Below, one piece after another: positions 32,241 to 60,015 of a stretch of 64,000 nucleotides of DNA. Each line of letters begins with the position of its first letter. Positions within the stretch are counted from its first letter, which is position 1. Under the pieces are notes generated by a model, which worked only from the letters and a program-made list of their open reading frames with translations, did not search any database and was not told the DNA's origin. Made by a program: the position numbers and the translations under genes. Origin of the DNA: Octopus vulgaris (lineage: Eukaryota); contig OX597820.1 in NCBI GenBank assembly GCA_951406725.2, positions 41,354,001 through 41,418,000 of the forward strand, given 5' to 3'.

Positions 32241-32430
32241 TTCAAATTTACAGGAAACAAAAGACGAAGAAAAGTGTAGGAACAACAAGCAGGAGTATTA
32301 ATTTAACCATTGGGAAGAATGAAAAAGTTTTTTATGTTTCGAGCTTATGCTCTTCGACAGAAAGGATTAAGAGGTAAAAAAAAAAAGGGAGAGAGAAAAA
32401 TATGTGTAGGGACTAACGGGTCAAGATGAT
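32240..32430 (-). mobile_element. Penelope-like terminal fragment, same family as 59395-59600
   Basis: Shares aaacaaaagacgaag ... gtttcgagc(c/t)ta(c/t)gctcttcgacagaaag ... gagaaaaa..tg(c/t)gtagg. Abuts a (TA)n tract. Confidence 0.6.
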
Positions 32431-52364: not shown

Positions 52365-52624
52365 TATTATTGTCACATCATTTTGTTGAACACAATATAA
52401 ACATACTGGACCCGATCTGACACGAGCGAACTACAACAGCAGTAACCAATGGCGAACGAAAACATGTGAAGACAACTATTATTTTCTAACAGTCACATTC
52501 TAGCGCGTGTATGACCGTGTGTGTGTGTGTGTGTGTGTGCATGTGGTGCAGGTGTTTGTGTGTTTATGTAGGTACGTGTGAAAATGAAATATGTCTTAAA
52601 TTAGTATATATATATATTGTCTCA

Positions 52625-53025
52625 AGGCAGCAAGCTGGCAGAATCGTTAGCACGCTGGGCGAAATGCGTAGCCGTATTTCGTCTGCCGTTACGTTCTAAG
52701 TTCAAATTCCGCCGAGGTCGACTTTGCCTTTCATCCTTTAGGGGTCGATAAATAAAGTACCAGTTACGCACTGGGGTCGATGTAATCGACTTGATCCGTT
52801 TGTCTGTCCTTGTTTGTCCCCTCTATGTTTAGCCCCTTGTGGGTAATAAAGAAACAGATATTTCACTTGTCTTTACGTTCTGAGTTCAAATTCCGCCGGA
52901 GTTGACTTTGCCTGTCATCACCTTTAAGGGTAAAAAAAAAAAAATGAGTAGCATGTAAGCACTGGGGCCGATGTAATCGACTCAGCCTCTCTCAGAAATT
53001 GCTGACCTTGTACCAAAATTTAAAA
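52625..53025 (+). mobile_element. SINE family A, dimer
   Basis: Full head, core and tail, then a second headless unit with the alternative tail. Confidence 0.85.
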
Positions 53026-53264
53026 TCACTATATATATTCAGATTTGCGGTGAAATTACAATATGTTGTCAAACCTCTGAACATTCAACCGAAGAGTGTT
53101 CAGCTGGTTTCGTATTCCTGAAACTCATCTGGGATCACTTTCTGCTTCTCTCAACAATAGTTTACTTAGTTTTCCCATAGGAAGATACACACTTTTTAAC
53201 TTGAACAGCATGATGTAAGAAACCCTTTGTATTTTGAGTATGAGATTAATTATGCTGTTAAGAA

Positions 53265-53851
53265 GGCGGCGAGCTGGCAGAAACGTTAGCACGCCGGGCG
53301 AAATGCTTAGAGGTATTTCGTCTGCGTTACGTTGTGAGTTCAAATTCCGCCGAGGTCGACTTTGCATTTCATCCTTTCGGGGTCGATAAATCAAGTACCA
53401 GTTACGAACTAGGGTCGATGTAATCGACTTAATACCTATGTCTGTCCTTGTTTGTTGCCTCTGTGTTTAGCCCCTTGTGGGTAATAAAGAAATAGAAATA
53501 GGTATTTCGTATGCCGTTACGTTCTGAGTTCAAATTCCGCCGAAGTCGACTTTGACTTTCATCCTTTCGGGGTCGATTAAATAAGTGCCAGTTACGCATT
53601 GGGGTCGATATAATCGACTTAATCCGTTTGTCTGTCCTTGTTTGTCCTCTCTGTGTTTAGCCCCTTGTGTGCAATGAAGAAATAGGTATTTCGTCTTTCT
53701 CTACGTTCTGAGTTCAAATTCCGCCGAGGTCGACTTTGCCTTTCATCTTTTCGGGGTCGATAAATTAAGTACCATTCGCGTACTGGGGTCGATCTAATGG
53801 ACTATCAAACCCATCCCACCAAAATTTCGGGCCTTGTGCCAAAAGTAGAAA
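53265..53851 (+). mobile_element. tRNA-derived SINE family A (Meta/MESC-like core), head-to-tail trimer
   Basis: Pol III A box (agctggcagaaacg) and B box (gagttcaaattcc). Core gcctttcatcctttcggggtcgataaattaagtaccag repeated three times. ~22-bp TSD at 53243-53264 / 53852-53873 (3 mismatches). Confidence 0.9.
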
Positions 53852-57232: not shown

Positions 57233-57619
57233 GAGTAGAGGCGAGCTGCTATCATCTCTAGCAGACGAGGTGTCTAGTACTGAGGAGTGGCAGAAATAGC
57301 CCGAATTGGCATGCTGGTCCCGTCGCTAGAAGACGGTAAGGTTCACTTCCCTGCTCGCAATTCTACCGGATACAGCAGTGCATCGTTAACCAGCTAGAGG
57401 AGATGTCTTCTTGGGCTTCAAACATCGCAGTGGTGTCTGCTCGAACGGACAGCCATGTTAAAGTGGCTACAAATATTACTTGTTAATACAACTACTGCGT
57501 TGATCTCTTAGAGGAATTTTAGAAATAGCGATTTTGCTTGTTGCAAAATCAGCGACTGTGTGTTCGCTTAAAATATATATGTTGCAAGCGGAGGCGAGCT
57601 GCTATCATCGCTAGCAGAC
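57233..57619 (+). mobile_element. Retrozyme-like tandem repeat: unit 1 (~353 bp) plus the start of unit 2
   Basis: gaggcgagctgctatcatc(t/g)ctagcagac occurs at 57238 and 57591 (period 353). Unit 1 holds a degenerate hammerhead at 57257-57330 (CTGAGGA at 57280; stem III partly deleted). Confidence 0.75.
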
Positions 57620-57871
57620 TCGTGTCAGGCTTTTTTGGTTGTCGCTTATTTGAGTTCGTGAGTTCAAATTTGTTATATATTTAATGTTTTGTTGTTATTG
57701 CTGTATTTGTTGGAATTGAACTGTTGTTTATTTGTTAATTTCTATTTTTGCCCTTCCGGGCAGAAAAGTCTTAAATTCTGAAATATTGTTGTGAAAGTGA
57801 CAACTGTGATTTGTCTAATTTTATTCCTTTTTGAAGGAATTTGTTTACTGTGAAAAATTTTTCTTCACGTC

Positions 57872-58980
57872 ATGGATTACAATTTGCTTTTGTATAAAGA
57901 TTTCCCGGAGATGGAAAAAGCTAACAATAATGAAAATTTAACGCAAGTGCAAAAGGAAAAGCAAAGTTTTTCAGCCGCAGTGGGCGGCAACATGGTAACA
58001 ATGGAAGTTACAATGGCAGAACATTTTAAATATAGGAACCTTGTCAAAAAAGCAGGTAGTGATACAAAACTACTCTCTCCTAAAGAGGTTTTACAGAATA
58101 TTGCGGTAAAAACTGTAGTGTACAAAACGTACAGTATAAAAGAAAAGAGAACAACGACATGTAAAAGTGAGGCAATAGAAAAATGTTTGTCGCCAATCTG
58201 GGACAGAATAATTTACGTCAGCCGTGGGTCGAAGCTCAATTCGCCGATGAAGAAACGGCAAAGGATTTATCGACAATGACCTTCAAAAATGAAGAGGTAT
58301 ATTACTGCCGACGTAATTGGGCAGACGAACCGCTAAAATTAAAGTGGAAGAAATTCCGGCAGGTTTCGACGTTATATGGAAAGCGGCGGCCATTACATAT
58401 GACCTGGAAGAGGAAATGAGCATTCTGCGAATGCAAAAACAAAAAAGGAAGCAGAGAATTGAAAAGGTCAGTCCCTCGAGATGGTCGTACAGGTCAAACC
58501 TGATATCCTTGAGGGACTGCCCGATAGAGTAGTTATAGGTGAGGGGCTAAGCGTAAGGGTCGGAGTAGAAGGCCGCGTTGCTTTAAATGCGGTGAGAAGG
58601 GTCACGTTCGCTTAGACTGTAAAGCAAAGAAGCACGAAGCCCCTCCACGACAAGAACCACAAAACGCGAAGCAGACAAAAGAACAACCAGTAAAACAAGC
58701 AAAAGTTACACAAGAACCCAAGGAAGATCGGAAAAAAACCCATAGAGACAACGATACAAACCAACCACAGAAGGTGACAAAATGGAGATTACCACAGTTA
58801 AATCCCGAAAAAAGAAAAAAATTCCCCAGCCCCAGACTCCCCACCCATAGGAATAAAACATCCAAAGCAAATGCAGACACATACGAAACCCCGCAGACCA
58901 CTCCCTCGTTAAAACCCATTTCCCATTCCCACCCCAAGACGCAGAACAAAATATTTTCTTTTATTGACAATAATAAGGTG
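57872..58980 (+). pseudogene. LINE ORF1 (gag-like zinc-knuckle protein), frameshifted
   Basis: Broken overlapping ORFs (57872-58279, 58183-58419, 58317-58532). VGVEGR precedes the CX2CX4HX4C knuckle, followed by a K/Q/E/P-rich tail. The 3' limit is approximate. Confidence 0.75.
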
Positions 58981-59394
58981 CTTGGCTCAGTAATCCGAGC
59001 TCACTATAAAGCTCAAGTGTATAAAACTAGAAAAGACATTCCACCTCACATTAGAATTGTTAGAATGGAGGCCCATAACTCTACTTAATGTAGAGTTAAA
59101 GATTTTGGCCAAGGTGCTAGCGAAGAGGTTGGCGCGTGTTGCGGAGAAACTTGTTGAGAGGGCCCAGACATGAGTCATCCCAGGCAGGTCGATCCAAGAA
59201 ATCTCCATCTCGTGCGCTACACATTAGAGAGGGTAGGTAAGTTATCCAGTAAAGGTGGGGTACTGGTCCATTTAGGGCTGGAGAAAAGACGCCTGTCGCG
59301 AAGTGTATACGAGAAAAGATGGAAGGATGTGGATAGAAAGTTGGGGTTGGAACGACCCGGCTTAATCTCAACCATAGTAAGGTAGTACGGTGTA

Positions 59395-59600
59395 AAGGGA
59401 AAGTTTACGAAAATAAACAAAAGACGAAGGCAGGTGGAGTACAAACAAATGTATTAGTATAGCGCTCAGGAATAGAAATAGAAAAAGTCTTTTACGTTTC
59501 GAGCCTACGCTCTTCGACAGAAAGATACACAGAAAAAACAAGGAGAGAAACAAGGGGAGAAAAAAATGCGTGTAGGAGGTAACGATCTATCATGGCGTGA
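59395..59600 (-). mobile_element. Penelope-like terminal-repeat fragment with a minimal hammerhead, nested in the LINE 3' UTR
   Basis: Perfect 9-bp TSD tacggtgta (59386-59394, 59601-59609). Minus strand 59525-59488 reads tcttt-CTGTCGA-A-gagc-gtag-gctc-GAAA-cg-TA-aaaga. A homologous copy lies at ~32240-32430. Confidence 0.7.
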
Positions 59601-59782
59601 TACGGTGTAGCCGGTGGACTTCACGGGTAAGGTTTAAAATTGTTTAATTAGATTTAAATACATCATCATATTTTTAAAATTCATTTATGAACCCATGAAC
59701 ACTTTTTGTTTGTGATGTCCTATATTGTCTTCCCTATTTCCGATAAATATTATAATATATATAATATCAAATATTATAATAT

Positions 59783-60015
59783 ATCTCTAGTAGACGAGGT
59801 GTCCAGTACTGAGGAGTGGCAGACGCAGCCCGAAAGCAGGATTGGTATGCTGGTCCCGTTGCTAGAAGCTTGTAGGGGTTCGCTCCTCTGCTCGCAATTT
59901 TATCGATGCAACTGTACATCGTTAACCAGCTAGAGGCGATGTCTTCTTGGGGTTAAAAAATCGCAGTAGAGTCCGCTCGAACGGACAGGCATGTTAAGGT
60001 GGCTACGATTATTAC
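59783..60015 (+). mobile_element. Retrozyme-like tandem repeat: remainder of unit 2 after the LINE insertion
   Basis: Colinear with ~57254-57479 (roughly 75-80% identity by eye). Ends in a (CA)n tract. Confidence 0.75.
59786..59866 (+). ncRNA. Type I hammerhead ribozyme (near-intact)
   Basis: Stem I ccagta/tgctgg, extended by gacg/cgtt and tctagt/gctaga. Core CTGAGGA 59809-59815. Stem II g(t)ggc/gccc. GAAA 59832-59835. Stem III has one G-G mismatch. Cleavage triplet GTA 59845-59847. Confidence 0.75.

Follow-up and report, generated by a model that had tools for sequence, protein, structure and literature searches.

Tx1-like LINEs of Octopus vulgaris at a fixed site in hammerhead retrozyme units, a predicted transcription start

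The window is a stretch of 64,000 nucleotides of the Octopus vulgaris genome (contig OX597820.1, positions 41,354,001 to 41,418,000 of the forward strand). Close to its end, a LINE interrupts the second of two retrozyme units. The features are given below in positions of the window. ORF2 remnants are numbered as in the ORF2 of an intact relative, and the predicted +1 of the retrozyme transcript is taken from the motif spacing in U1 and U2 genes.

57236-57588, + strand: retrozyme family A unit 1, 353 bp
57254-57332, + strand: hammerhead of unit 1, part of stem III lost (about 7 nt)
57548-57554, + strand: motif like the snRNA-type proximal element, 59 nt ahead of the duplication start, as in U1/U2
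57574-57580, + strand: TATA-like box, 33 nt ahead of the duplication start
57607-57619, + strand: target-site duplication, 5' copy; predicted +1 to +13 of the retrozyme transcript
57620-59782, + strand: Tx1-like LINE (family A), decayed and internally deleted
57863-58653, + strand: ORF1 remnant, frameshifted, with a CCHC knuckle near 58576-58623
59063-59361, + strand: ORF2 remnants, the start of the RT (aa 520-594) fused by a deletion to the C-terminus (aa 1108-1137)
59395-59600, - strand: secondary insert of 206 bp, a piece of a Penelope-type terminal repeat that includes a mutated minimal hammerhead; 9-bp repeats flank it at 59386 and 59601
59610-59782, + strand: LINE 3' UTR, poly(A) absent
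59783-59795, + strand: target-site duplication, 3' copy, equal to the 5' strand of distal stem I
59783-59868, + strand: type I hammerhead downstream of the LINE (core 59809-59815, GAAA 59832-59835)
59783-60015, + strand: rest of retrozyme unit 2, with a microsatellite at its end

The second unit runs for 31 bp up to 57619, is broken by a 2163-bp insert and resumes at 59783; from there to 60015 it is 83% identical to unit 1. The two 13-mers (57607-57619 and 59783-59795) differ at 2 positions. Re-comparison of the window thereby agrees with the preliminary description, in which the LINE lies within unit 2 between the copies of a 13-bp duplication with 2 mismatches. Family A units are found in many copies, both dispersed and tandem (1505 candidates). 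Elsewhere in the window (52624-53803), an abundant SINE-like repeat exists in several copies, partly tandem, with a 190-bp period.

The zinc knuckle of ORF1 matches PF00098 (E 2e-4). Together with the ORF2 piece of aa 520-594, this bears out the first reading of the insert as a CCHC ORF1 followed by an RT remnant. The element is frameshifted and lacks the endonuclease and most of the RT; judged by its sequence, this copy is dead. The closest named RT is from Argonauta (58%). In other copies the 3' UTR ends 3-9 nt past AATAAAGA. The 206-bp insert resembles repeats located 3' of GIY-YIG-like ORFs at two other loci (L347 and L357), and a further Penelope-type terminal-repeat fragment with a minimal hammerhead is present at 32255-32418 of the window.

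The hammerhead behind the LINE is left whole because the duplication restores it, and its cut is predicted after 59847. The claim that this ribozyme is complete holds for its length, but the window copy has a mismatch in stem III (G.G at 15.2-16.2, beside the core) and an altered loop II; its cleavage is predicted to be impaired. Rfam detects no hammerhead in the window, nor in 8 further loci; the identification rests on the motif and on covariation. Of 30 loci, 16 have C-G and 12 have U-A as pair 3-8, and the switch from C3-G8 to U3-A8 is a functional compensation. Two-sided changes are found in 5 of 18 consensus pairs. Stem I has all 6 of its 6 pairs in 23 of the 30 loci, with the cut site picked to maximise pairing.

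The targeted retrozymes are tandem, non-coding units of 353 bp in family A and, in arrays, 362 bp in family B, within the span of about 170-400 bp that marks non-LTR retrozymes. Retrozyme B (L240-L269) is 99-100% identical among copies (1067 candidates), has the U3-A8 core variant and inserts in (TA)n. At 16 retrozyme B loci, most arrays end near unit position 221 or 284 and pass into (TA)n-type repeats, the 5' part is mostly inverted, and none of the 16 has LINE sequence. We take (TA)n ends with inverted 5' parts to be the Penelope insertion pattern. One Penelope family was sampled at 30 loci with a GIY-YIG-like query; its minimal-hammerhead repeat matches the 206-bp insert of the window. The retrozymes have no homology to the terminal repeat of this one family, and the search of these 30 loci did not yield an autonomous partner of the retrozymes.

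The flanks of other family A copies show where this LINE goes. The best 30 of 40 matches to its 3' end were examined; 28 are LINE 3' ends, the window included, and 2 are copies of the secondary insert. Among these listed matches, 18 of the 27 other LINE 3' ends join retrozyme A at the identical base (19 of 28 with the window). The remaining ends among the 28 are followed by the duplication alone and then another LINE in tandem (3), lie inside a sister retrozyme (2), are followed by the 12-mer only (1) or lie in unrelated sequence (3). Tabulating the flanks had been proposed as a check on a chance insertion; with unrelated flanks in just 3 of the 28 listed, chance does not account for the window locus. 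On the 5' side, all 14 distinct junctions, read by eye, carry a version of the 13-mer, 8 after unit sequence and 6 after the 3' end of another LINE. The junctions of L034 and L046 were also read by eye instead of being called automatically. Genome-wide, the pattern of a LINE 3' end followed by a hammerhead core has 111 matches, compared with 3 in a reversed control. Truncated copies with target sequence on both sides are L039 (clear) and L028 (weak), among 22. LINE-free units are common, since the LINE touches only 2 of the 29 other best unit A loci. Targeting of retrozymes by the LINE family, rather than chance, is almost certain, and what was first suggested for one family extends to the whole clade. 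At several loci (L005, L009, L010, L016 and L019), the 5' copy of the duplication often shows a C at a position that is G in free units. Of 11 free units scored there, 9 have G and none has C, hinting that the C belongs to a leader carried by the element.

An RT search gave 150 scored relatives at 68-75% identity. ORF2 is open in many of them (1134-1148 aa), and some form tandem arrays with a period of about 5.3 kb. Intact young relatives are about 5.3 kb long and have an APE-RT-zf layout. ORF1 of the clade has a CCHC knuckle, and ORF2 encodes an N-terminal APE endonuclease, the RT and a C-terminal Cys motif. PF03372, PF00078 and PF13966 are matched in ORF2 of the intact relatives and in family A pieces, and the best PDB match is L1 ORF2p. 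The set of young copies comprises 120 loci, of which the 109 with a locatable 3' end were kept and the other 11 dropped. Poly(A) is found at none of the 109 LINE 3' junctions. Duplications are 13-21 bp at 47 sites, mostly 17 or 14, and where LINE copies stand in tandem, only the duplication lies between them.

Outside clade C, 48 of 56 young copies are in retrozymes (45 by the strict pattern, 3 by eye); 4 others are tandem, 2 are in U2 and 2 elsewhere. The intact relatives use several diverged retrozyme families, which are distant homologs with 68-81% identity in patches. In clade C, a hammerhead is downstream in 0 of 53 copies, though the LINE ends are unchanged. This clade is nested within the retrozyme-targeting lineages (100/99 in the DNA tree; 89/93 within 82/81 in the protein tree, rooted with unnamed or hypothetical proteins as outgroups). 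U2-inserted copies are placed among retrozyme D copies with near-zero branch length. From these trees, retrozyme targeting is reconstructed as ancestral in the sampled clade.

At the U2-inserted loci L183 and L198, the sequence behind the LINE 3' end is a full-length U2, and the duplication covers -3 to +14. At L412, the LINE 3' end is joined to a full-length U1 at +1. Only 2 of 30 U2 loci have a LINE, and none of the 19 distinct U1 upstream regions listed has one. In the U1 cluster of contig C18 (L411 and L412), LINE 5' and 3' junctions with U1 are about 41 kb apart, possibly as the ends of one tandem array.

The insertion site has a constant position relative to promoter-like signals. The motif ATCA[GA][TC][GC] is located at -57 to -61 in 46 of 50 U1/U2 loci. 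Among retrozymes other than B, 23 of 24 sites have it 55-59 nt ahead of where the duplication starts, these sites coming from few homologous families; in the window it is at -59. This suggests that snRNA-type promoters may drive these retrozymes. The strict motif is missing in retrozyme B, which has a variant only (0 of 10), and clade C sites lack the motif at this distance (0 of 16), so that one common factor is not shown. U6 matches mostly have no upstream motif and look like pseudogenes, and they gave no calibration of the polymerase type. Retrozyme units at L139, L150, L152 and L190, and the window at 57548-57580, share both the U1/U2 upstream motif and its spacing.

Of 20 target types, 16 have a TATA-like box at -35 to -26, where 2.6 would be expected; for the 13 non-retrozyme types alone the count is 10, against an expected 1.8. 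This interval was set after inspection of the data, and several of the target types are homologous. With the test set beforehand and applied to held-out loci, the box was found in 10 of 21 (3.7 expected), and in only 2 of 5 when new target types alone are counted. Among the misses, 7 are from one family and one locus is actually tandem. Because the motif and TATA counts differ between these groups, a predicted start site is strongly supported in the case of retrozymes and snRNA genes and moderately in that of clade C.

The LINE inserts at one fixed site of the unit likely because that site is the transcription start of the unit, a point absent from the preliminary description. Since near-identical relatives sit at the first bases of U1 and U2, the aim of the LINE is likely start sites, with borrowing of the promoter, and not the ribozyme. 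The probable mechanism, in our judgement, is that the LINE captures promoters at start sites and that flanking RNA assists in the choice of target. Retrozyme units would carry snRNA-type Pol II promoters. The nicks of the endonuclease, one at about -3 to +1 and the other at about +14 to +17, would fall within or close to the promoter complex. RNA of the LINE would begin at the host +1, carrying the duplication as a 5' leader, and would extend a few bases into the 3' flank. These flanks may pair with a new site and hold each lineage to its target family, with occasional switches. The hammerhead would be a by-stander, and the unit would lose its own promoter to the LINE. Against promoter capture stand the small share of U1 and U2 loci with a LINE, the variant or missing motif in retrozyme B and clade C, the held-out TATA count for new target types and the three family A ends in unrelated sequence.

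Some copies carry at the 5' end a leader that is foreign to their site. The U2-inserted copies have a retrozyme-G leader, and L163 has a leader from C6, another clade C target. L318, which is 95% identical to lineage B, has a U1 leader from +1; its site is not U1, and the first bases there are the same as the U1 start. In clade C, micro-lineages keep distinct junction starts of 3-5 nt across unrelated targets, and some of their endonucleases differ by 4-6 of 238 aa. Such relic leaders and kept junction starts fit transcription from the host promoter and a short RNA-DNA pairing at priming.

Classical Tx1 targeting would explain the sites differently. The endonuclease of each lineage would read primary sequence, and the link to start sites would reflect selection for landing behind an active multicopy promoter. 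The major lineages, whose endonucleases are 28-57 aa apart, do each have their own preferred target, and ATCG with a downstream GG is common to the U2, retrozyme G and retrozyme D/E sites. It is reported that the endonuclease mainly sets target choice in the elements treated in PMC4494074. But the clade C micro-lineages use unrelated sequences despite their few endonuclease differences, promoter-motif spacing is common to the targets more than sequence is, and even dead-end single insertions of clade C are often behind a TATA-like box. We consider this explanation unlikely. Changes in the endonuclease alone might also account for the target shifts.

The ribozyme itself might be the signal, if the LINE recognised the inverted repeat of stem I or used RNA ends made by self-cleavage upstream or downstream. 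The ancestral state of retrozyme targeting is in keeping with this, as are the position of the insertion site at the 5' base of the extended stem I (24-32 nt ahead of the core), the intact and covarying hammerheads beside young copies, and the lack of poly(A) at the 109 junctions. However, no LINE ends at the ribozyme cut site in 30 junction loci, the target running past it in all 30; this and the absence of hammerheads in clade C speak against the earlier proposal that flanking hammerheads process the ends of the LINE transcript. The U1 and U2 targets have no hammerhead, and the ribozyme is absent from internal tandem LINE copies. Clade C left the retrozymes yet keeps the same ends and tandem arrays, and therefore the ribozyme is dispensable for LINE insertion. 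A role for it as the signal is improbable.

Hitch-hiking, by which one insertion per family was amplified with its flanking units by Penelope machinery or by duplication, is largely refuted and very improbable. Both the LINE and retrozyme B are very young, and the upstream arrays contain inverted pieces, as such a history would allow. But near-identical LINEs are present in retrozyme D, retrozyme G and U2, locus-private variants occur in both duplication copies (L143, L153, L154 and L039), and L039, which is 5'-truncated, has target sequence on both sides; these indicate independent insertions. Finally, that the LINE supplies the RT mobilising the retrozyme is hardly credible and was suggested by physical association only, because the retrozyme B arrays terminate in (TA)n, mostly with the 5' part inverted, and carry no LINE tail at any of the 16 loci, no retrozyme insertions flanked by 14-17 bp duplications were seen at start sites, and bioRxiv 10.64898/2026.07.22.740005 ties animal retrozymes to Penelope-like elements.

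Promoter capture can be put in a bolder form, which is offered tentatively and with real doubt. The LINE clade would be active and integrate at Pol II start sites by position, and its memory of the target would reside in its own RNA flanks, not in the endonuclease. Retrozymes with snRNA-type promoters would be its ancestral safe harbour, and a few swapped flank bases would redirect it to another promoter.

Fixed positions relative to a transcription complex are found in yeast Ty3 and Dictyostelium TRE5, which insert at Pol III genes. R1 and R2 use flanking rRNA sequence, and co-transcribed flanks aid junction formation. The octopus units differ from these cases in their resemblance to Pol II promoters of the snRNA and TATA types, and a tether protein was not identified.

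Tx1 families are described in PMC4494074 as targeting transposons, microsatellites and small RNA genes: Tx1 in Tx1D, Keno in U2, Kibi and Koshi in microsatellites, and Tx1-Mar in Mariner. A target preference is assigned there when more than 20% of flanks are of one kind. For family A, 18 of 27 ends are of one kind, and duplications are present. The octopus LINEs resemble the Tx1-clade LINEs of that paper in their APE-type ORF2, CCHC ORF1 and multicopy targets that include other transposons. Unlike those LINEs, they target a hammerhead retrozyme, which is absent from the list in PMC4494074, at a predicted transcription start, and a single clade of them has changed its target between retrozymes, U1, U2 and TATA promoters. 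The same paper reports tandem SINEU-3 copies that sandwich one duplication and discusses transcription from flanks. The element behaves like a target-specific Tx1, and "Tx1-like" fits its anatomy; no match or cluster in the searches is named Tx1.

Keno and Utopia insert in U2, at times in tandem, and the downstream U2 starts at nt 39 (PMC4640811). Here, the downstream U2 or U1 starts from -3/+1, and a complete coding region is left behind the LINE. Identity with Keno was considered and rejected on this junction.

Metazoan non-LTR retrozymes with a type I hammerhead and Penelope-like insertion anatomy are described in PMC7229834 and bioRxiv 10.64898/2026.07.22.740005. The units here agree in both characters and in their tandem arrangement (350-365 bp). 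They differ from those descriptions in having a U1/U2-like upstream motif and in serving as a landing pad for a LINE. In the main texts, "TATA" does not occur in PMC7229834, nor "promoter" or "Tx1" in the bioRxiv paper. In an annotation of octopus repeats, 13 families of L1-Tx1 are given as recently active (PMC13282606), and hammerhead, ribozyme and target do not occur in the part of it covered here. A literature search, with Repbase, subscription journals and supplements outside its scope, turned up no description of a LINE that targets retrozymes or start sites.

Ribozyme retroelements are thus an added target class for site-specific LINEs, in a parasite-of-a-parasite relation. A U1/U2-type promoter in each unit would explain, in a way that can be tested, how animal retrozymes come to be transcribed. 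The many intact, near-identical copies with different targets form a natural experiment on the shares of endonuclease, promoter complex and RNA flanks in LINE specificity, which also matters for programmable gene insertion. Clade C insertions at the start sites of host genes could reshape cephalopod gene expression.

The targets of clade C are varied. One multicopy target, C2, hosts many copies (L134, L147 and L302-L313) and has a short hairpin, a T-run, a splice-donor-like site and a weak TATA. Other copies (L165, L167, L169, L171 and L330-L333, mostly on contig C27) are in the apparent first exon of a clustered gene family, a type of target with a TATA, initiator-like bases and a splice donor further on. 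One micro-lineage targets tandem repeats that are related to one another, measure about 500-700 bp and have a clear TATA box (L145, L164, L186 and L187). At L322, a target of about 80 nt directly past the LINE 3' end terminates in a strong hairpin; it has no Rfam match and could be an unannotated small nuclear RNA. In the protein cluster P0138, a limpet relative is represented by 11 near-consecutive gene models on one contig, which suggests that a related LINE forms tandem arrays in another mollusc.
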